Source of the DNA: Escherichia phage a20 | DNA length: 64,000 nucleotides | Strand: one strand, 5' to 3' | Sequence record: OQ067374.1 | Shown: positions 34,218 through 50,666 of the stretch, one piece after another | Layout of the letters: each line of letters opens with the position of its first letter | Numbering within the stretch: position 1 is the stretch's first letter | Notes under the pieces: model-generated | Seen by the model: only the letters and a program-made list of their open reading frames with translations | Database searches by the model: none | Told to the model about the DNA's origin: nothing | Translations under genes and position numbers: made by a program

Positions 34218-34466
34218 TTATTTAAGGGTAATAACAAAATGACGTACTGCTTTACGAGCTGCAGAAGCCAAAGGCTTAGCATATTTCAGTTCATCTTTTG
34301 CTTCCAGTTCAGAGGCCAAAGCTGCCTGTACCGGGTTCAGATGTTTGAAATATCGCAGGATTTCAAGAGCTTCGGCTTCAACATCAATAGATGCGCCATA
34401 GTTTTCGTGGCCGTTATTCCATGCGTTTCGTTGCAGTTCAAGAGCGTGTTGTAATTGTTTAATCAT
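34218..34466 (-). CDS. rIII: rIII lysis-inhibition accessory protein
   Basis: 82 aa; position upstream of gene 31 as in T4. Confidence 0.8.
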   Translation of the reverse strand: MIKQLQHALELQRNAWNNGHENYGASIDVEAEALEILRYFKHLNPVQAALASELEAKDELKYAKPLASAARKAVRHFVITLK

Positions 34467-34590
34467 TTTAAATTCTCAATTCGAGATAATATTTAGTAGC
34501 CACGTTCGTCTGAATTTCACTTCCTTTCGACAAGTCTCTCAGTTGTAGGCTACCGCTTAGAAGAGTGTTCTCTTCATATAGTTATTTATA

Positions 34591-34923
34591 TCACTTATAA
34601 AGACACGGAATAGCTTTATAGTGGCATGTTACGAATTTCTGTTTAATTTCTTTAGGTTGTTTAAGTCCCAAAGCCACAAATGGATGTGGAACATTTCGAA
34701 TTTGTCCAACTGGTAGTGGAGTCAAATCACCGACTTCAACAAAACCTTTAGGAACATCAGGACCTACAGAATGAACTACACATAGTTCAGGAACTTCACC
34801 TTGAACACGTTTACCAATCACAAGTCCTGATTCGGTAACTTCTTCATCACCTGCTTGAGCGGGTTCAGAAACCAGAATGACATATTCACCAACGGCACGA
34901 ATTGGGAGTTGTACTTCAGACAT
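34591..34923 (-). CDS. 31: gp31 co-chaperonin (GroES-like) for capsid folding
   Basis: 110 aa; synteny rIII-31-cd. Confidence 0.92.
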
Positions 34924-34980
34924 CTTATTTCCTTGTTGTTTAACGATAGATTAATAATACCATACTATTCGTAAAGCATA

Positions 34981-35289
34981 TTACATAAGAAGCAAACGTT
35001 CTACCGGAGTACCATCAACCGAAATTACTTTATCAAGGCGGAAAGAACGCCACTGACCTAACTCGGTATCGAATGCTCGAACTGATTCACGAGGTTCAGA
35101 ACGAACTTCTGTTGATGGGTTACTATTTTCATATTTGACTTCAAGTTCATCGCGGGAGGCAAACATCGTACGAACATCACCGTTAGCCTTTTCAAACACA
35201 ACACAATGAACGCCTACAGACAGAATAGTTTTAATACGTTCACGAAGAACCATAGTTTCTTGTTCAGTTAAAATCATATTATTCACCAC
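34981..35289 (-). CDS. hypothetical protein (31.1-like)
   Basis: 102-aa ORF between 31 and cd. Confidence 0.6.
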   Translation of the reverse strand: MVNNMILTEQETMVLRERIKTILSVGVHCVVFEKANGDVRTMFASRDELEVKYENSNPSTEVRSEPRESVRAFDTELGQWRSFRLDKVISVDGTPVERLLLM

Positions 35290-35860
35290 AAAAGTTTCGA
35301 ATTTGTTCCCAATTCAGAGAACGAAGATTATTACGAGAGTACTGAATTACTTCAATACCGGCTTGTTTTAGAATGTCTGCCCAATTTTCAGGAGATCGGT
35401 CATATAATTCTGCATATACAACCTTTTTAATACCTGACTGTGTAATAGCTTTAGTGCAATCAGGGCACGGAGAAAGCGTAGTATATAACGTAGCACCTTC
35501 AATAGAATTACCTTTACGAGCTGCAAACAAAATTGCATTCAATTCCGCATGGATTTCGTTATTAGCAGACCATGCACTATGAGCGGCCCGATGTTCTTTA
35601 GCCAAAACAAAATTATCCACCCGTCCAAATGCTGTAGTGCCTTCTTTATGCCCAGCAACGATGACCGGGCTTGGTTTATTCTTCAACCAACCGTTTTCGG
35701 ATGCATGTTCGCAACAGTTTGTACCACCTGAAGGAGAGCCATTATAACCTGTAGAAATAATGCGCCCATCTTTTTCAATGACGGCACCAACTTTCCATGA
35801 ACAACATTTTGATTCTTGAGAAATCAGATATGCAATCTGAAGGTATGTGCTAGCTTTCAT
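35279..35860 (-). CDS. cd: dCMP deaminase
   Basis: 193 aa; zinc-binding HAELNAI and PCPDC motifs. Confidence 0.95.
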   Translation of the reverse strand: MKASTYLQIAYLISQESKCCSWKVGAVIEKDGRIISTGYNGSPSGGTNCCEHASENGWLKNKPSPVIVAGHKEGTTAFGRVDNFVLAKEHRAAHSAWSANNEIHAELNAILFAARKGNSIEGATLYTTLSPCPDCTKAITQSGIKKVVYAELYDRSPENWADILKQAGIEVIQYSRNNLRSLNWEQIRNFCGE

Positions 35861-36852
35861 TATTGAACCTTATTAATATGAGTTAACAGCTCTTTAGTTT
35901 GTTCCCAACTGATGCACGCATCGGTAACGGAAACGCCATAGGACATATTATCAGAAATTTTTTGATTTCCTTCATGTAGGAATGATTCTATCATAATTCC
36001 TTTGACCAAATCATTAGCTGCTAAATTTTTACCAATACCAATTTGATTGCTATAATGCCCAGCAGCGTTTGCATGGCTACAGTCAACCATTACATAATGA
36101 TTCAGACCTACTGCACTTGCTTTGTTAGAAGCTTCTTGAATATCAGAAGAATGATAGTTCGGGCCGTTGGTCCCGCCACGCAATACGATATGCGTATTCT
36201 GATTACCTTCAGCTTCAACAATGCCTACAGTACCATCGACGTCCATACCCATATACCGATGAGGCCAGGCGGCACTATACATCGCGTCTGTAGCTACTTT
36301 AATAGAACCATTGGTTGCGTTCTTGAAGCCTACGCACATCGGTAGACCTGAAGCAATTTCACGATGTGTCTGACTTTCAGTCGTACGGGCGCCAATAGCA
36401 ACCCATGAGAAAATACCAGAAAGATACTTAATCGTGAATGGGTCTAATACTTCAGTTGCTAATGGAAGTCCCATACGTAGAAGTTTACGACACAATGTTC
36501 GTGCAACTATAAGACCGTGGTTCATATCAAAACTTCCGTCAAGATATGGATCATTTACAAGACCTTTCCAACCTACGGTAGTTCGAGGCTTTTCAAAATA
36601 AACGCGCATCACTAACAGAACATTAGGAAGACGAGTTTGAAGTTCAGCCAAACGTTTGCCGTATTCAACAGCAGCAATAGGGTCATGAATTGAACAAGGA
36701 CCTACAACAATAAGTTTGCGTGGGTCTTCACCGTTCATAATCGAATTAACTTGTTCGCGATGAGAAGCCACTTGTGATGCGTAAGCTTCCGACAAAGGAA
36801 TAATCTCAGCCAGTTCTTTTGGAGAAATAAGTTTTCCGACGACAGGTAACAT
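35860..36852 (-). CDS. 3-deoxy-D-arabino-heptulosonate-7-phosphate (DAHP) synthase, class I alpha (AroG-like)
   Basis: 330 aa; near-identical blocks to E. coli AroG as remembered (VVGPCSIHDP, MRVYFEKPRTTVGWKGL, GARTTESQ, ILRGG, VESFLHEGNQ, SVTDACI); ATG overlaps cd stop. Confidence 0.93.
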   Translation of the reverse strand: MLPVVGKLISPKELAEIIPLSEAYASQVASHREQVNSIMNGEDPRKLIVVGPCSIHDPIAAVEYGKRLAELQTRLPNVLLVMRVYFEKPRTTVGWKGLVNDPYLDGSFDMNHGLIVARTLCRKLLRMGLPLATEVLDPFTIKYLSGIFSWVAIGARTTESQTHREIASGLPMCVGFKNATNGSIKVATDAMYSAAWPHRYMGMDVDGTVGIVEAEGNQNTHIVLRGGTNGPNYHSSDIQEASNKASAVGLNHYVMVDCSHANAAGHYSNQIGIGKNLAANDLVKGIMIESFLHEGNQKISDNMSYGVSVTDACISWEQTKELLTHINKVQ

Positions 36853-36972
36853 AACAATCCTTAGGAGATATAAACAGATTCTGATTCAACAATACCTTTA
36901 ACCGGATTAGACAGGCTAAGTTGGTAGTGCTCAGATTTATGACCATTCTCGATAGTAATTAGATAGCTCTCA

Positions 36973-37209
36973 TTATAGTGTTCCATATACTCGAGTTGCT
37001 TCAACTAAACCGTCACTGCCTAATTTAAGGCTAGTAATCTGGTCACCATCTTTAGGATTAACGATTATGAGAAAAGAACGTGGAGATTCTTGAATAACTC
37101 GTAATGTTGCATCCTGGAAACGTTCAGACACTTTATTGATGAGTGCTTGAGCAAATTCTTTTACTTTAATCTGAAATTCGTGTACTGTAATTGGGTTTTC
37201 ACTTAGCAT
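36973..37209 (-). CDS. hypothetical protein
   Basis: 78-aa ORF; early promoter at 37249-37268. Confidence 0.5.
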   Translation of the reverse strand: MLSENPITVHEFQIKVKEFAQALINKVSERFQDATLRVIQESPRSFLIIVNPKDGDQITSLKLGSDGLVEATRVYGTL

Positions 37210-37248
37210 TTCGATTTCCTCATTGTGTTGGTAGAGTCATAGTATCAC

Positions 37249-37268
37249 AACTCTACCATGTTGTAAAC
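37249..37268 (-). promoter_or_regulatory. early-type promoter for the small-ORF cluster upstream of the DAHP synthase gene
   Basis: Minus-strand GTTTAC -35 and TACTAT -10 flanking the ORF start at 37209. Confidence 0.45.
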
Positions 37269-37270
37269 CA

Positions 37271-37606
37271 TTAAATTGCTTTGCATTCAATTTTTTGTGT
37301 ACCGAAATTGATATCACATTGGATAACTAAATCGCCGTCAAGATCAAATACCACGATGACGTGTGCAGACCCAGGGAGAAGAGTAATAGCAATAGAATCT
37401 ACTTGGTCTGGGAGCAAAGCATTGAGTACATGAGTTACTTGAGCATGAACTCTGAGTTCGGCTGCATTATCAAGCACTTCAAACATATTATTAGCAATAA
37501 TCTGACTGAAGACTACCTTTACAATTTCAGAATAAGTTGGGAACATAATTACCTCAGTGTACAGTGTGCACTTTAACTCGAACAACAAATCGCTCGGTTG
37601 GTTCAC
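37271..37606 (-). CDS. hypothetical protein
   Basis: 111-aa ORF (possibly shorter from an internal Met). Confidence 0.5.
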   Translation of the reverse strand: MNQPSDLLFELKCTLYTEVIMFPTYSEIVKVVFSQIIANNMFEVLDNAAELRVHAQVTHVLNALLPDQVDSIAITLLPGSAHVIVVFDLDGDLVIQCDINFGTQKIECKAI

Positions 37607-37778
37607 CTACAGGAACAAACTCTACATGATATTCACCTTTGTAACGAGTATTCAGATCATTACGAATTCCTGCGAGTTTGTTGATTAATGTAGGACTCAT
37701 ATTAAGTCCCACTAGTTTACGAAGCATTTTGTATGCTTCATCTTCGATTTCATGATGTTTATCATACATAGTTTTCAT
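37554..37778 (-). CDS. hypothetical protein
   Basis: 74-aa ORF. Confidence 0.5.
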   Translation of the reverse strand: MKTMYDKHHEIEDEAYKMLRKLVGLNMSPTLINKLAGIRNDLNTRYKGEYHVEFVPVGEPTERFVVRVKVHTVH

Positions 37779-37949
37779 TTAACCATTCAATTGCTTGGTC
37801 AACACTATCGAAAATAGCACCATCCAAACGTTCTTCATGCTCATAGTCCAGCACATCAATACCGAACTGTCCATTTACTAAAGGCCAGGCTACAAACAAA
37901 TATTCTTTATGCTGTTCGATGGCCTCAATCACTTCATATAATCGTTTCA

Positions 37950-37950
<1 letters not shown>
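37762..37950 (-). CDS. hypothetical protein
   Basis: 62-aa ORF directly downstream of pseT. Confidence 0.5.
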
Positions 37951-39036
<1,086 letters not shown>

Positions 39037-39037
<1 letters not shown>

Positions 39038-39336
39038 TATTTTATTCCTAAGAAAGTTTCAAGAATACGAATGTTATGCTCGCGCCGGTCTTTATTAATT
39101 TCAGCAACGTTTTTATTAATTGACGTACTTCTAACGTTTGAAGAAATAAATTTAATCATATGACTTTTGAGTTGTTGCAAATCCAACCCTTTTTCTTTAG
39201 CAGCTTTACGAAGAGCTTTACCTGCTTCATCTAGTGCCTTTGCTGCATCTTTGTCATAATTGACAAGTGACATTCCACGGCAGATATCAATATACTCATC
39301 CGACCGTTTGATGTAATTCTCTAGTAATGTTTTCAT
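39037..39336 (-). CDS. hypothetical protein
   Basis: 99-aa ORF. Confidence 0.5.
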
Positions 39337-39393
39337 TTAGATTTCCTCAATTATCCATGGGAGCATTATACTCTGCTCCCGAGAGTTTGTAAA

Positions 39394-39618
39394 CTATTTT
39401 ACTAAAGATTCGATATACTCATGAAGAGCTTTAGTCGCTACTGCCCACTTGTTCTGATATTCATTTTTCAGATTAGCACGAGACTGAACTAACAAGCGGT
39501 CGTTAGTCGGGGGCAAAGATTCTAATCGTTGAATCTGACGGCCGTAAATCATAGCCGCCATTTCAGAGTCATAGATAAGTCCTTTAAGGTATTCATGCTG
39601 TTCTTTAGTCATTGGCAT
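39394..39618 (-). CDS. hypothetical protein (pseT.1-like)
   Basis: 74-aa ORF. Confidence 0.5.
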   Translation of the reverse strand: MPMTKEQHEYLKGLIYDSEMAAMIYGRQIQRLESLPPTNDRLLVQSRANLKNEYQNKWAVATKALHEYIESLVK

Positions 39619-42419: not shown

Positions 42420-42922
42420 TTAGAAATATTTTTTGTATGAATTGATTACATTTTGGTCTACATCATTATCAATTTGTGCGACAAGATAAGAACTGATTTC
42501 AACTTCCTGAGGAGCGGCTTGAACTAAATCAGAGTTCAGATATTCACGAATCCAAGGATACGGATGCTTGGTCGGAGCATCAGTGATTGGGCATGGCAAA
42601 CCACACTGTTTCATACGAGACACAGTCAAGTAATCAACAAAAGCACACATACTCTGCGTATTGATACCTGGACATGTACCGTCTTTAAAGAGGTGTGCAG
42701 CCCATTCCTTCTCTTGACTATTTACTTCCATAAAAATGTCAACTGCTTCTTGTTCACATTCTTTAGCAATTTGAACCCACTCATCACCATCAGTACCAGA
42801 TTGAAGTTGACGGATAATGTACTGAGTACCCTTGAGGTGGAGTTGTTCGTCACGAGCAATGAACTTCATAATCTTTGCATTACCTTCCATAATTTCCATA
42901 TTTTTATGGAAGTTAAAGGTAC
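42420..42922 (-). CDS. nrdB: ribonucleotide reductase small subunit NrdB, exon 2
   Basis: Reading frame aligns with R2 C-terminal half (NMEIMEGNAKI..IARDEQLHLKGTQ; E. coli LMEGNAKII..IARDEALHLTGTQ); 3' splice site placed after intron-terminal G at 42923 (inferred). Confidence 0.85.
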
Positions 42923-44012
42923 CGTATGTTCGATTGAGCTCGCTAATTCTCAACCCGTTCTCTTATGAACTGCTGCATGTTACCATGCAGTCCAGACTAT
43001 ATCACAATCCCGGAGGGATTCTCCCCATTTCGAGTCGCTTGACCCTACGTCCGAAGACTAGTCGTTGAACCTTGTTTTGCAATTGTCGCCGTGCCATCGT
43101 TTATATGTTGATGGTGATAAATCTTTCTTATCACAATATGGACAATTCAATTGAATTCTATTTGGATTTAATTTACATCTGTCATTATGTTTTAGATAAA
43201 ATCCAGGACCTTTACCAATGTGACCACAAAAATCACATGTGATTTCTTTTTGTGCAGGATGGGTCCCGTTCTTAACCATTTCTAATGTTTTTGCTGATGT
43301 TCTTTTCTTATGGTCTTCTGATAAGAAATGATGTGAACCGTCATTTACCCGTTTTGATTGAGTTTCTGACTGCATTTTACCACCGCAAAATACATGAGTA
43401 CCTTCTTTTATAGCTGCAATATTGCGTTCTTTAACTTTTGCAATATGCTCAGCTTGTTGAAAATTATGTATACCTAATGCAACTCTATTTAAATTAGATT
43501 TACGCTGTATTTCACCATCTAAAAGATGAAATGTACCATTTTCTATCTTAGATTTAATAGAGGCAATATTTTTAGCTCGTACTTCAGGGATATTAAAAAT
43601 CTGGATTTCTCTAGATTTTGCGGCTTTAGAAGCTAATTCAGAAATTTCTTCAGGAGAATATTTCATTCTAAGCTTTATAGCATGACAAGCCTGGTAATCT
43701 TTTTGAGCTAAATGTATATCATAATGTTCCTGTATAGAAAGGCACATCAAATTATCTAAATCATTATTTTCACGGTTACCGTCTTTATGATGGATTTCGT
43801 ATGTTCTTCCATCAGAATCTTTAGGTATAGGTCCGTTAGCATCTATCCAAATTTTTCTATAGTTCAATTGTGCATCCTCTTAAAAGTATAATCATATTTA
43901 TATTATACTAATTAAAGGTGCAAGCAAAACCTTGGCTGCTAGTTTTCCTATAAAGGACTTTCCAGCAATTAAAGGAGTTTTCGATAAACGTTACCGTTTA
44001 AAGGCGCATTTT
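42923..44012 (-). mobile_element. group I intron in nrdB (about 1090 nt) carrying an I-TevIII-like HNH homing endonuclease ORF
   Basis: nrdB reading frame is interrupted by in-frame TAA right after ...EAIRFYVSFA and resumes about 1.1 kb downstream; intron 3' region has GTTCAACGACTAGTC and TAGGGTCAAGCGACTCGAAA elements paralleling the td intron; boundaries inferred. Confidence 0.8.
43058..43867 (-). CDS. intron-encoded HNH homing endonuclease (I-TevIII-like, full length)
   Basis: 269 aa; HNH motif EIHHKDGNRENNDLDNLM; Cys-rich C-terminal zinc-finger-like region; apparent TTG start 7 nt after SD AAGAGGA. Confidence 0.85.
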   Translation of the reverse strand: MNYRKIWIDANGPIPKDSDGRTYEIHHKDGNRENNDLDNLMCLSIQEHYDIHLAQKDYQACHAIKLRMKYSPEEISELASKAAKSREIQIFNIPEVRAKNIASIKSKIENGTFHLLDGEIQRKSNLNRVALGIHNFQQAEHIAKVKERNIAAIKEGTHVFCGGKMQSETQSKRVNDGSHHFLSEDHKKRTSAKTLEMVKNGTHPAQKEITCDFCGHIGKGPGFYLKHNDRCKLNPNRIQLNCPYCDKKDLSPSTYKRWHGDNCKTRFND

Positions 44013-44688
44013 ACGCAAAAGATACATAAAAACGAATAGCTTCTAAGGCATTAATAACGTGCAAACAGAGGTAAAGAGATTTCATTAAAGCACGTTTAGC
44101 TTCGGCTTCTTGTTTAATAGCTCGGTTTAAACGAAAGTCGGCATCAGGAGATTCTTTAGCTAATTCTACAAATTCTTTAGCATTTTCCCAATAACGAGTT
44201 TTAACCAGAACATCATCGTAATAGCGACCAATAGATTCAGCTCGTTTCATGATTGCTTCGTCTAATACAATCTCATCAAATACCTTAGATGGGTCCGTAT
44301 AAAGATTTCGCATAATATGAGTATACGAACGAGAGTGAATAGTTTCACTGAATGTCCATGTTGCAACCCACGTATCTAATGAAGGGTCGGAAATCAGTGC
44401 CATAAGTACCGCAGATGGGGCCCTGCCTTGGATAGAATCTAATAATGATTGATACTTAAGATTGTTTGTAAAGATGTCCTGTTGGAACTGAGGAAGCTTA
44501 TTGAACTGCGCAGAGTCCAACATCAAGTTTACCTCTTCTGGGCGCCAGAAAAACGACAATTGCTTTTCAATAAGTTCTTCAAAAACTTTATGTCGCTGAA
44601 TATCATAACGTGCGAGGCCAAGACCAGAACCAAAGAACATTGGTTCATTCAAAACATCGACTTGTTGTGTGTTAAAAACTGTACTCAT
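44013..44688 (-). CDS. nrdB: ribonucleotide reductase small subunit NrdB, exon 1
   Basis: N-terminal half of R2 (FSETIHSRSYTHI, EAIRFYVSFA) as in E. coli and T4 NrdB. Confidence 0.9.
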
Positions 44689-44743: not shown

Positions 44744-47008
44744 TTAAAGCTTACAAGCAGAACAATCTTCAGCTTTAGGTGTTTCTAATTCATAGTCATC
44801 TGTACCTGACCCATCACGAGTGTTATGATAGTAGAGGTTTTTTCCGCCAAAGTACCAGAAGTAAAGCAGATCGTCAAGCATTACTGACATTGGCACTTTA
44901 CCTTTCTCAAATACTGCAGGGTCATAGTAAGTATTAGCAGAAGCAGATTGGCACACCCATTTCAACATGATAGCAACTTGGGTCAAATAAGGTTTATTAC
45001 CTTTCTTAGCAAGTTTCCACGCATAATCGTAAAGACTCATGTTATGTTCGATATTAGGAACAACCTGACGGAAGTTGCCTTCTTTAGATTCTTTAATACT
45101 TACTGGACCACGTGGGGGCTCAATCCCGTTTGTAGAGTTTGATACTTGACTGCTTGACTCACAAGGCATGAGTGCAGACAACGTTGAGTTACGAATTCCA
45201 TGTTCTTTGAGTTCAGCTCGAAGTTCTTCCCAGTCACATACGTAGTTCGGGGCTGCGATTTGGTCAATCTTTTTATTGTACCAGTCGATAGGTAATTCGC
45301 CTCTAGACCATTTAGTGTCTGAATAATACTCGCAACATCCTTTTTCTTTGGCGAGTTTGATTGATGCTTTGATAAGGCCATATTGCAATCTCTCAAACAA
45401 TTCATGAGTCAAATCGTTAGCGTCTTCATATGAAGCAAAGTTAGAAGCTAACCATGCAGCATAGTTCGTAACACCAACACCAAGATTACGACGCTTTTTA
45501 GCTTTTAAAGCTTCTGGAACCGGATAATCCTGATAGTCTAACAGGTTATCAAGTGCACGTACTTGTACTTCAGCAAGTTCATTAATTTTATCTTGGTCTT
45601 GCCAATCAAATTTATCCAATACAAAAGCAGATAATGTGCATAAACCAATTTCAGCATCAGGACCATTCACATCATTAGTTGGAATAGCGATTTCACAACA
45701 TAAGTTACTCTGACGAATTGGAGCTTTTTCACGAATAAACGGAGTGTAGTTATTCGTGTTATCAACAAACTGTGGATAAATTCGAGCAGTACCAGAACGT
45801 TCAGTCATGAACAATTCAAAGAGTTCTAGTGCTTTGATTCTTTTCTTTCTGATTGTTGGGTCTTTTTCAGCTTTCTCATAAAGCTCACGGAATTTATCTT
45901 GATCTTCAAAGAATGAGTAATATAGTTCGCCTGACATTTCGTGAGGGCTAAATAAAGTAATATAATCATTTTTACCAAGGCGTTCCATCATAAGGTCATT
46001 AATCTGAATTCCGTAGTCCATATGTCGAATACGGTTTTCATCCACGCCTTTGTTATTTTTCAGAACTAATAGGTTCTCTACTTCTAAGTGCCACATCGGA
46101 TAATACGCTGTAGCAGCACCACCACGAATACCACCTTGAGAACAAGATTTTACTGCAGTTTGGAAATGTTTCCAGAATGGAATAACACCCGTATGTCGAA
46201 CTTCACCCATACCGATCTTAGAACCTTCTGCACGAAGCATACCAACGTTGATACCAATACCAGCTCGTTTAGAAATATATTCAATAATTGATGCTGAAGT
46301 TTTGTTAATAGATTTTAACGAATCACCGGCTTCAATAACTACACAACTAGAGAACTGGCGAGTCGGAGTACGAGCACCTGCCATAATTGGAGTAGGCAAT
46401 GAAACTTGATGAGTAGAAACGGCGTCATAAAAACGAATAATATGTTTCAAACGGTCATGAGTTTCGTCTTGGTGTAAGGCCATGCCAATAGCCATGATAG
46501 CAAACTGTGGAGTTTCATAAATCTTCCCGGTTGTTTTATCTTTAACTAGATATTTTTCTTTAAGCTGCATAGCACCAGCATAAGTCAGGTCAAAGTCTCG
46601 TTCATGTTTAATCTGTGAATCGAGATAAATGATTTCTTCTGCTGAATATTGAGACAACAGCTCAGGGTCATATTTGCCTTCATTAACACAATAAGAAATA
46701 TGGTCGATAAAAGCAGGCGGTTCAAACTGCCCATATACATCTTTACGAAGTGCAAACATTAGCCCTTTGGCGGCGACATACTGATAATCAGGTTCTTCGA
46801 CAGAAATCGAGTTAGCTGCAACTTTAATACAAATCTTCTGGATATCTTTGGTGCTCATCCCATCGACAAGATGGGTCTTAATTTCTTCGTACAATTCATA
46901 TGGGTCAATTTGTGTTCCTTCACATTGCCAAGTTAAGACTTGAATAATTTTCTGTGCATCAAAATTTTGGGATACACCTGAATTTTTCACTACTTTAAAA
47001 TTATACAT
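44744..47008 (-). CDS. nrdA: ribonucleotide reductase large subunit NrdA
   Basis: 754 aa, same length as T4 NrdA; class Ia RNR with conserved catalytic NLCxE segment. Confidence 0.96.
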   Translation of the reverse strand: MYNFKVVKNSGVSQNFDAQKIIQVLTWQCEGTQIDPYELYEEIKTHLVDGMSTKDIQKICIKVAANSISVEEPDYQYVAAKGLMFALRKDVYGQFEPPAFIDHISYCVNEGKYDPELLSQYSAEEIIYLDSQIKHERDFDLTYAGAMQLKEKYLVKDKTTGKIYETPQFAIMAIGMALHQDETHDRLKHIIRFYDAVSTHQVSLPTPIMAGARTPTRQFSSCVVIEAGDSLKSINKTSASIIEYISKRAGIGINVGMLRAEGSKIGMGEVRHTGVIPFWKHFQTAVKSCSQGGIRGGAATAYYPMWHLEVENLLVLKNNKGVDENRIRHMDYGIQINDLMMERLGKNDYITLFSPHEMSGELYYSFFEDQDKFRELYEKAEKDPTIRKKRIKALELFELFMTERSGTARIYPQFVDNTNNYTPFIREKAPIRQSNLCCEIAIPTNDVNGPDAEIGLCTLSAFVLDKFDWQDQDKINELAEVQVRALDNLLDYQDYPVPEALKAKKRRNLGVGVTNYAAWLASNFASYEDANDLTHELFERLQYGLIKASIKLAKEKGCCEYYSDTKWSRGELPIDWYNKKIDQIAAPNYVCDWEELRAELKEHGIRNSTLSALMPCESSSQVSNSTNGIEPPRGPVSIKESKEGNFRQVVPNIEHNMSLYDYAWKLAKKGNKPYLTQVAIMLKWVCQSASANTYYDPAVFEKGKVPMSVMLDDLLYFWYFGGKNLYYHNTRDGSGTDDYELETPKAEDCSACKL

Positions 47009-47648
47009 AATAATTCCATGTTGGATAATTTGATGATTTTAGACGGCGTCTAACCGTTTGGGTGCTCATAGATAAAATTATTGACGCTTCATTTAATGTA
47101 TCATATATTACGTCGTTTATAATTACTTTCTTTGCAAATGGATTCTTAGCTCCTATCATAGCATTAGAAATAGCTTGCTTAGTTGATTCTTTTAATGGGA
47201 CTCCTTTAGAAATTTTTGATTTAATTTTTATATTGTATTGTCCACGTTTTTTACCTAATAAAGAATTTCGTATCTTTTCTTTAGTCTCTTCAGATTTAAC
47301 ATGTCCTAGTTTGGAACGAGATATTTTATCTTTTGTTTTTTGGTCTAATTTTCGCCCTTTAAGCAAATCAACCATTTTTGCTCTAGTCCATCCAAATTCT
47401 TTATTATTTCTAGAACTCATTAAATTAACCGCGGTTGCTAAACCTAAATTGTTCGGATATATTTTTAATAAAAGAAGATGAGCCAAATAATGTTCTGAAT
47501 ATGTTAATTTAACTAGATTGTATGACTCATTGGTGCCACCTAAACATTTTGGGATTATATGATGCCATTCACCATCTATATCTTCAAAATTTCTTTCTTT
47601 ATTTACCAAGTTTTTATATATTTTTAAATAATCCATAGTATAATCCAC
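47001..47648 (-). CDS. free-standing HNH homing endonuclease
   Basis: 215 aa; HNH core GEWHHIIPKCLGGTNESYNLVKLTYSEHYLAH; C-terminal SxxxKxKI repeats and HTH-like tail; stop overlaps nrdA start (ATGTATAA). Confidence 0.85.
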   Translation of the reverse strand: MDYTMDYLKIYKNLVNKERNFEDIDGEWHHIIPKCLGGTNESYNLVKLTYSEHYLAHLLLLKIYPNNLGLATAVNLMSSRNNKEFGWTRAKMVDLLKGRKLDQKTKDKISRSKLGHVKSEETKEKIRNSLLGKKRGQYNIKIKSKISKGVPLKESTKQAISNAMIGAKNPFAKKVIINDVIYDTLNEASIILSMSTQTVRRRLKSSNYPTWNYYV

Positions 47649-48278: not shown

Positions 48279-49294
48279 CATTATGTTCAGATAAGGTCGT
48301 TAATCTTATCCCGGAATTATATCCAGCTGCATGTCACCATGCAGAGCAGACTATATCTCCAACTTGTTAAAGCAAGTTGTCTATCGTTTCGAGTCACTTG
48401 ACCCTACTCCCTAAAGGGATAGTCGTTAGGCATTTATGTAGAACCAATTCCACTTATCAGATTTTACACGGTAAGTAACTAATCCTGATGAAATTTCAAA
48501 ATGTCTAGCCGCATCGGCTGCACATTCAAAAATAATCCCATCGCATGAAATCTTTTTGATGTTAGCTGGCTTTTTGCCTTTCATCTTTTCAGATAGTTTA
48601 GTTTTAGTTTTTTCTGAATGTTTGTGATTAAAGAACGGGTTATTTTCACCTGAACGTTTTCGGCACTTTCCACAAGTATCGGCCGAAGATGGTATGCGAA
48701 CACCGCATTTACAAAACTTGTGGTTTTCTGGATTCCATCGGCCATTTTTACTTCCGTGTTTACCATAAAGAGCTTTCCGACCATCAGGACCAAGCTTAAG
48801 CATCTTAGCTTTAACAGTTTCAGCTCGTTTCTTAGCAATTTCTTCTTTTAATGGATGATTTGAAAGCACATCACCAAAAGACGCATCAGCAATATTATAT
48901 CCATTAATTTTAGAATTTAGCTCTTTAATCCAAAAATTTTCTCGTTCAATAATCAAATCTTTCTCATATGGAATTTCTTCCAGTACAGAGCATTCAAAAA
49001 CATTACCATGTTTATTAAAAGACCTTTGAAATTTTATAGAAGAGTGAACACCGTTTTCAAGGTCTTTAAAATGTCTCTTCCATCTTTTCTCAAAATCTTT
49101 AGCACTTCCAACATACACTTTACCGTTTAAAGTGTTTTTAATCTGATAAATTCCGCTTTTCATAAACACCTCTTTTTATATAGAAGTATTTATTAAAGGG
49201 TAGTCCTACAATTTAGCACGGGATTGTCTACTAGAGAGGTCCCCCGTTTAGATAGATTACAAGTATAAGTCACCTTATACCTAGGCCTAAATTA
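48279..49294 (-). mobile_element. group I intron in td (1016 nt) carrying I-TevI
   Basis: 5' exon ends ...TTAGGT; intron begins TAATTTAGGCCTAGGTATAAGGTGACTTATACTTGTAATC and ends ...AACGACCTTATCTGAACATAATG, as in the T4 td intron; length 1016 nt. Confidence 0.92.
48426..49163 (-). CDS. intron-encoded GIY-YIG homing endonuclease I-TevI
   Basis: 245 aa from MKSGIYQIKNTLNGKVYVGSAKDFEKRW (GIY-YIG motif); Cys4 zinc finger and C-terminal DNA-binding domain. Confidence 0.95.
   Translation of the reverse strand: MKSGIYQIKNTLNGKVYVGSAKDFEKRWKRHFKDLENGVHSSIKFQRSFNKHGNVFECSVLEEIPYEKDLIIERENFWIKELNSKINGYNIADASFGDVLSNHPLKEEIAKKRAETVKAKMLKLGPDGRKALYGKHGSKNGRWNPENHKFCKCGVRIPSSADTCGKCRKRSGENNPFFNHKHSEKTKTKLSEKMKGKKPANIKKISCDGIIFECAADAARHFEISSGLVTYRVKSDKWNWFYINA

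Positions 49295-50666
<1,372 letters not shown>

Follow-up and report, generated by a model that had tools for sequence, protein, structure and literature searches.

We analyzed a 64,000-nucleotide stretch of DNA from Escherichia phage a20 (sequence record OQ067374.1), referred to below as the window, and focused on an open reading frame (ORF) on its minus strand in the interval between pseT and cd. [quoted passage not shown] DAHP synthase is the flux-controlling and feedback-inhibited entry to the shikimate pathway. In the phage protein, the catalytic site was retained, and the site of feedback inhibition was remodeled in a manner common to a clade of T4-like phage sequences. The gene, its neighbors, and the local signals are as follows.

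35860–36852 (stop codon included), minus strand: DAHP synthase gene (type Iα), an uninterrupted ORF of 330 amino acids (aa) with an ATG start, transcribed from 36852 to 35860.
36856–36863, minus strand: Shine-Dalgarno sequence TAAGGA, read from the sequence, 5 nt 5′ of the DAHP synthase ATG.
36861–37004, minus strand: 47-aa ORF of PHROG 15876, function unassigned, directly upstream of the DAHP synthase gene.
35279–35860, minus strand: cd (deoxycytidylate, dCMP, deaminase), downstream of the DAHP synthase gene, its ATG overlapping the stop codon of that gene.
36973–37209, minus strand: cd.2 homologue (65% identity to T4 Cd.2, E = 1e-34), the first gene of the probable early unit.
37239–37267, minus strand: probable early promoter in the cd.3–cd.2 gap, found by promoter scan (GTTTACA and TACTAT, with a 17-nt spacer between them that ends in TG).
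37950–38849, minus strand: pseT (polynucleotide kinase/phosphatase), the upstream edge of the pseT–cd interval.
49840–50427, minus strand: frd, in the same-strand early nucleotide-metabolism block.

An initial annotation of the window had described a 330-aa ORF with its own Shine-Dalgarno sequence at this position, and both were found. It had also reported that the ATG of this ORF overlaps the stop codon of cd, which reverses the actual arrangement: the DAHP synthase gene lies upstream of cd in the direction of transcription, and its TAA (35862–35860) and the ATG of cd (35860–35858) have one base in common within TAATG. The DAHP synthase gene is thereby predicted to be translationally coupled to cd. 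On its other side, the preceding 47-aa ORF ends in a TAA that falls within the Shine-Dalgarno sequence of the DAHP synthase gene. An ORF is annotated at the same position as this 47-aa ORF in the relative JK45; the origin of the 47-aa ORF as a remnant of T4 cd.1 was rejected, as comparison with T4 Cd.1 gave no similarity. The promoter block aligned at almost every base with the T4 gap that holds the RefSeq early promoter Pe133295, and no terminator-like sites were found on the minus strand in 34400–39400, a range covering the stretch from the promoter to cd. These signals make it likely that the DAHP synthase gene is co-transcribed early with cd.2 and cd.

The assignment to the class Iα DAHP synthases was upheld by hidden Markov model (HMM), structural, residue, and synteny evidence. 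The protein matched Pfam PF00793 (E = 7.4e-75; 251.8 bits, cutoff 25.5) and passed the cutoffs of NCBIfam TIGR00034, the aroFGH equivalog (427.9 bits, cutoff 173.2), and NF009395 (455.6 bits, cutoff 343). Residues 1–330 aligned with positions 8–337 of the 341 positions of the PHROG 5045 profile (E = 1.6e-181). The closest solved structure was E. coli AroF (6AGM; E = 9e-105), followed by the Neisseria enzyme and AroG. An AlphaFold model of the protein (predicted local distance difference test score 89.7; template modeling (TM) score 0.92–0.94 against solved DAHP synthases) showed the barrel, helices at residues 11–17 and 22–39, and the two strands of the β6a/β6b hairpin at residues 198–203 and 209–214, with the β0 region of about 8–10 residues absent.

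All 14 catalytic residues that were checked in the alignment were retained, and each was invariant in the 25 sequences of the phage clade described below. They comprised the metal ligands C53, H260, E289, and D311 (AroG Cys61, His268, Glu302, and Asp326), the phosphoenolpyruvate (PEP) ligands R83, K88, G154-A155-R156, K177, and R225 (AroG R92, K97, G163-A164-R165, K186, and R234), and the erythrose-4-phosphate (E4P) motif K88-P89-R90-T91 (AroG K97-P98-R99-T100). Among 98 cellular homologues, 13 of the 14 residues were invariant, and the position of AroG T100 was Thr in 95 and Ser in three. The KPRT/S motif distinguishes DAHP synthases from the homologous 3-deoxy-D-manno-octulosonate 8-phosphate (KDO8P) synthase, which uses arabinose-5-phosphate. 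The protein is very probably a functional DAHP synthase.

The protein resembled E. coli AroF, AroG, and AroH in its type Iα family, fold, and active-site residues, and differed from them in being 20–26 residues shorter. The initial annotation had termed it AroG-like and three of its blocks essentially identical to AroG. Two of these blocks, MRVYFEKPRTTVGWKGL (residues 82–98) and GARTTESQ (residues 154–161), were exact, and the third, quoted as VESFLHEGNQ, is IESFLHEGNQ in the sequence. The near-identity held for the catalytic blocks only, and the AroG label itself proved imprecise: global identity was 51% to AroF, 47% to AroG, and 43% to AroH, and the protein scored below the cutoffs of both the AroG-specific NF006723 (364.7 bits, cutoff 568) and the Trp-sensitive AroH family NF009396 (385.3 bits, cutoff 463).

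Next, we focused on the regulatory site. In type Iα enzymes, two subunits contribute to the inhibitor pocket, one through its N-terminal extension and the other through the region of its β6a/β6b hairpin, and occupation of this pocket by Phe, Tyr, or Trp shuts the enzyme down (PMC4735112). We compared the 25 phage-clade sequences with the 98 cellular homologues, using AroG numbering. Four pocket positions, occupied by Pro, Gln, Ser, and Phe in AroF, AroG, and AroH, were replaced in the phage proteins. The position of AroG P150 was Ile in 24 of 25 phage sequences (I141 in phage a20) and Pro in 90 of 98 cellular ones, that of Q151 was Lys or Arg in all 25 (K142) and Gln in 97 of 98, that of S180 was Pro in all 25 (P171) and Ser in 96, and that of F209 was Tyr in all 25 (Y200) and Phe in 96. 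Moreover, the N-terminal 8–10 residues or so, corresponding to AroG 1–8 with D6/D7 and including AroF N7/N8, were absent from the entire phage clade. This short N-terminus is not an artefact of start-codon choice, because no earlier start codon is available between the ATG of the ORF and the in-frame stop that precedes it.

The replaced positions coincide with those known from feedback-resistant laboratory enzymes. Feedback resistance is complete in AroG P150L and is also seen in S180F and F209A/S, and Q151 and S180 touch the main chain of the inhibitor (PMC9529685). In yeast, ARO4 Q166K is a feedback-resistant allele (PMC5879953); from the constant offset of 15 between the alignment ranges, we infer that ARO4 Q166 corresponds to AroG Q151, and the Gln-to-Lys replacement in the phage would then be the same change. 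The phage clade was thus naturally altered at the positions of the P150L, S180F, F209A/S, and Q151 variants of AroG and of ARO4 Q166K, and its N-terminus, a region also engineered in feedback-resistant AroG, was shortened. The laboratory forms carry single mutations in host enzymes, with resistance measured, whereas the phage proteins combine several changes that are known from sequence. Since the N-terminus is absent and the inhibitor contacts are substituted where laboratory mutations confer resistance, Phe, Tyr, and Trp probably do not inhibit the phage enzyme. Three stretches around the altered positions showed above-average conservation within the clade, namely DPFTIKYL, ASGLPM, and the invariant Tyr and Gly of an R/S-Y-M/L-G block (residues 137–145, 166–173, and 198–203). 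The nearest non-phage sequence, P0111, also departed from the cellular pattern at the altered pocket positions (A/G/P/H).

A natural parallel is proposed with PhzC, a type IIB enzyme of the Pseudomonas phenazine cluster (PMC6435475). Like the phage protein, PhzC is an extra DAHP synthase; it serves a special demand, is devoid of a working allosteric site for aromatic amino acids, and provides chorismate free of the usual feedback control (PMC6435475). The two differ in that PhzC is a type II enzyme that has lost whole helices and is encoded together with its downstream pathway, whereas the phage enzyme is of type Iα, keeps the hairpin, and is accompanied by no downstream genes.

To place the gene in an evolutionary context, we searched 5.8 billion proteins. 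Above about 55% identity, the matches comprised proteins of T4-like phages and unnamed sequences, several of them on contigs of 60–175 kb, and the named ones came from Edwardsiella, Erwinia, Klebsiella, Shigella, and Providencia phages and from Escherichia phage EcS1. Cellular proteins started at about 52–54% identity and belonged to many phyla. The 25 phage-type sequences formed one clade in a neighbor-joining tree (bootstrap 100/100). The location in the pseT–cd interval was common to JK45 (Mosigvirus), Klebsiella phage EI, Proteus phage PM2 (Bragavirus), and Serratia phage X20 (Winklervirus). The gene is under purifying selection: the ratio of nonsynonymous to synonymous substitution rates (dN/dS) between genera was 0.15–0.23, an approximate range given that dS is near saturation. 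Its GC content (41%) was similar to that of the neighboring cd and pseT. The clade, synteny, dN/dS, and GC evidence identifies the gene as an old and selected resident of T4-like genomes, and recent capture from E. coli was rejected, considering the many phyla of the nearest cellular proteins, the monophyly of the phage clade, and the GC match to the neighbors. In Klebsiella phage EI (1481–4548), the DAHP synthase gene stands between SegB/Seg-like and MobE homing-endonuclease genes, which could help move it between co-infecting phages.

Presence of the gene in phages is already known, as it has been catalogued in more than 100 phage genomes and is a matter of routine annotation. The initial annotation had noted similar entries in T4 relatives, and a tblastn search found a homologue with a full-length ORF in 212 phage records, and identity reached ≥95% in 139 of these. 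Many of these records, including RefSeq entries, name the protein phospho-2-dehydro-3-deoxyheptonate aldolase, DAHP synthetase, AroG, or aroF, and the protein of the window was 99.7% identical to deposited phage proteins. PHROG 5045 (phospho-2-dehydro-3-deoxyheptonate aldolase; category auxiliary metabolic gene; e.g., HX01, JK45, and APCEc01) is the same family without difference. In the only paper found to discuss a phage DAHP synthase, that of Klebsiella phage KLB31 is listed as a hypothetical auxiliary metabolic gene (PMC11845039). The 7-kb neighborhood of the gene was 97–98.5% identical to many Mosigvirus-type coliphages. JK45 (NC_054940, a Shigella phage) carries the RefSeq label Tequatrovirus, yet it was 97.8% identical to the window and encodes an RB69-type arabinose-5-phosphate isomerase, so that the label looks inconsistent.

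As the initial annotation had indicated, the T4 reference is devoid of a DAHP synthase gene here and has cd.1 in that position. In RB69 (NC_004928, 6743–7503), the type Mosigvirus, cd abuts cd.2 and no DAHP synthase gene is present, which makes it an accessory gene even in Mosigvirus. By a rough estimate, 139 DAHP synthase records at ≥95% identity stand against 151 records at ≥95% identity to the RB69 arabinose-5-phosphate isomerase, which points to the presence of the gene in the majority of RB69-like genomes in the collection. More distant DAHP-synthase-like matches (35–38%) were found in Aeromonas phage HJ05 (OQ594355) and in the human-faecal "Bacteriophage sp." records MT837410 and MT838377; these lie outside the T4-like clade and may represent independent acquisitions.

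The gene belongs to a run of same-strand genes. Within about 15 kb, the minus strand encodes gp31, cd, cd.2, pseT, alc, rnlA, a split nrdB, nrdA, a split td, and frd, which bears out the neighborhood of folate- and nucleotide-metabolism genes (frd, td, nrdAB, and cd) described initially. The td gene (48426–49843, minus strand) looked split: the ORF at 49292–49843 covers only positions 1–175 of the 266 positions of the thymidylate-synthase profile and is followed by a free-standing ORF for an I-TevI-like GIY-YIG endonuclease (48426–49169, minus strand), whereas td of JK45 is uninterrupted (861 bp). Similarly, nrdB was found in two pieces (44011–44688 and 42420–42953, minus strand) with an HNH endonuclease ORF (43058–43867) between them, an intron or homing-endonuclease arrangement resembling T4 nrdB/I-TevIII. 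A 215-aa ORF in the nrdA–td gap (47001–47648, minus strand) scored weakly for an I-TevI DNA-binding domain (24.9 bits, under the cutoff of 27) and may encode a homing endonuclease of the Seg/Mob type; in JK45, this position is taken by a hypothetical gene of just 255 bp.

Several observations weigh against a feedback-insensitive enzyme that matters to the phage. The 98 cellular sequences were only the top matches to the phage query, many of them metagenomic. The β6a/β6b regulatory hairpin was kept in the AlphaFold model, only a short stretch is missing from the N-terminus, and about one-third of the clade has a hydrophobic residue at the position of AroG I10 (Leu in 8 of 25, including phage a20). 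The glycine of Tyr-type enzymes was retained at AroG position 211, whose role is known from the Aro3/Aro4 switch. Within the phage clade, the columns of the altered site varied less than those of the remaining protein (entropy 0.47 versus 0.96), which suggests that the pocket still does something, either structurally at the dimer interface or by binding another ligand, and has not simply been lost. In the literature searched, no functional, biochemical, or genetic study of a phage DAHP synthase was found, and the lack of the gene in RB69 and T4 implies that there are conditions under which it is not required. Part of this evidence would fit an ordinary Tyr-sensitive isozyme of the AroF type that adds regulated DAHP synthase capacity after host expression is shut off; the retained glycine and hairpin, AroF as the best solved match at 51% identity, and the "aroF, Tyr-sensitive" annotation of several records all favor it. 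We nevertheless regard it as unlikely, as those labels were transferred by similarity, and as the four replaced pocket positions (24–25 of 25 sequences) and the missing N-terminal residues (25 of 25) fall where changes render AroG and Aro4 feedback-resistant. The conservation of the site would instead be expected if the remodeled pocket bound another effector, such as a nucleotide or an infection-specific metabolite, and conferred regulation relevant to the phage. DPFTIKYL, ASGLPM, and the Tyr of the R/S-Y-M/L-G block were near-invariant down to 55% overall identity, and the gene lies among allosterically controlled nucleotide enzymes (cd and nrdAB). This explanation is quite improbable, given that it comes with no candidate ligand and that the conservation may reflect the tight-dimer interface built by the same residues (PMC4735112).

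Two further explanations concern the benefit of the reaction rather than the pocket. The enzyme could act as a sink for E4P and/or PEP, pulling the non-oxidative pentose-phosphate pathway toward pentoses for nucleotides or for arabinose modification of DNA, with aromatic products incidental. Its position in the early nucleotide-metabolism block agrees with such a role, as does the presence of an arabinose-5-phosphate isomerase in Mosigvirus, EcS1, Serratia phages, Proteus phage phiP4-3, Shigella phage vB_SdyM_006, and Klebsiella phage KLB31; this isomerase draws on ribulose-5-phosphate for arabinosylated cytosine (PMC13326640). A tblastn search with the RB69 isomerase returned 275 records against 212 for DAHP synthase, and the two sets diverged: the isomerase occurred without DAHP synthase in RB69 and in about 57 Acinetobacter phage records, whereas DAHP synthase occurred in about 25 Klebsiella phage records and Klebsiella is missing from the ten organism names most frequent for the isomerase (≤3 records). 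The arabinosylation literature examined does not place DAHP synthase in the pathway. An obligatory link of DAHP synthase to arabinosylated-cytosine modification was accordingly rejected, and the sink itself, a stoichiometric speculation, is very improbable. A decaying or neutral passenger without phage function is scarcely credible: its absence from T4 and RB69 and the homing-endonuclease flanks in Klebsiella phage EI would suit such a gene, but the ORF is full length in all 212 records, the catalytic residues are invariant, dN/dS is low across genera, the GC content is adjusted to the neighbors, and the gene appears coupled to cd.

We therefore favor, with a probability of roughly 0.6, the reading that a catalytically competent, early-transcribed type Iα enzyme of an old T4-like clade, unresponsive to feedback, holds the entry to chorismate open. 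The gene would be transcribed early from the conserved cd.3–cd.2 promoter together with cd.2 and cd, and its product would convert PEP and E4P to DAHP by metal-dependent catalysis. Inhibition by Phe, Tyr, and Trp would be lost, unlike in host AroF, AroG, and AroH. The phage would bring the gate enzyme only: in the early regions of the near-identical JK45, no other shikimate, p-aminobenzoate (pABA), or folate-synthesis gene was annotated apart from td and frd. Because the phage supplies the gate enzyme alone, the host enzymes must carry out the later shikimate steps. In this way, the entry to the chorismate pathway would stay open during infection whatever the pools of aromatic amino acids, even after host transcription stops, and a gate blind to feedback would keep chorismate flowing in aromatic-rich settings such as the gut. 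The product that benefits could be the aromatic amino acids or pABA and folate, both proposed in the initial annotation, or quinones. The broader proposition has in our view about an even chance of being correct: a naturally deregulated DAHP synthase would have long been kept by T4-like phages from no fewer than four examined genera, with a pocket that was remodeled and then frozen, and it would either fail to sense aromatic amino acids or respond to an effector specific to infection.

The gene itself adds nothing to the catalogue of phage genes, and the contribution of the present analysis is the remodeled feedback site, the protein's most telling feature and one that the initial annotation had missed. 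A broken or rewired feedback site in the phage copy of this enzyme would be a clear viral bypass of host metabolic control, and the phage enzyme would offer metabolic engineering a ready-made, naturally feedback-resistant DAHP synthase. As a single gene present in most of the phage's close relatives in the collection and absent from RB69 and T4, it provides a simple experimental handle on the chorismate need of T4-like phages. If the proposed role is true, these phages force carbon into chorismate, or drain E4P and PEP, as part of their early metabolic takeover, and this would represent a demand of T-even-type infection without earlier experimental description.

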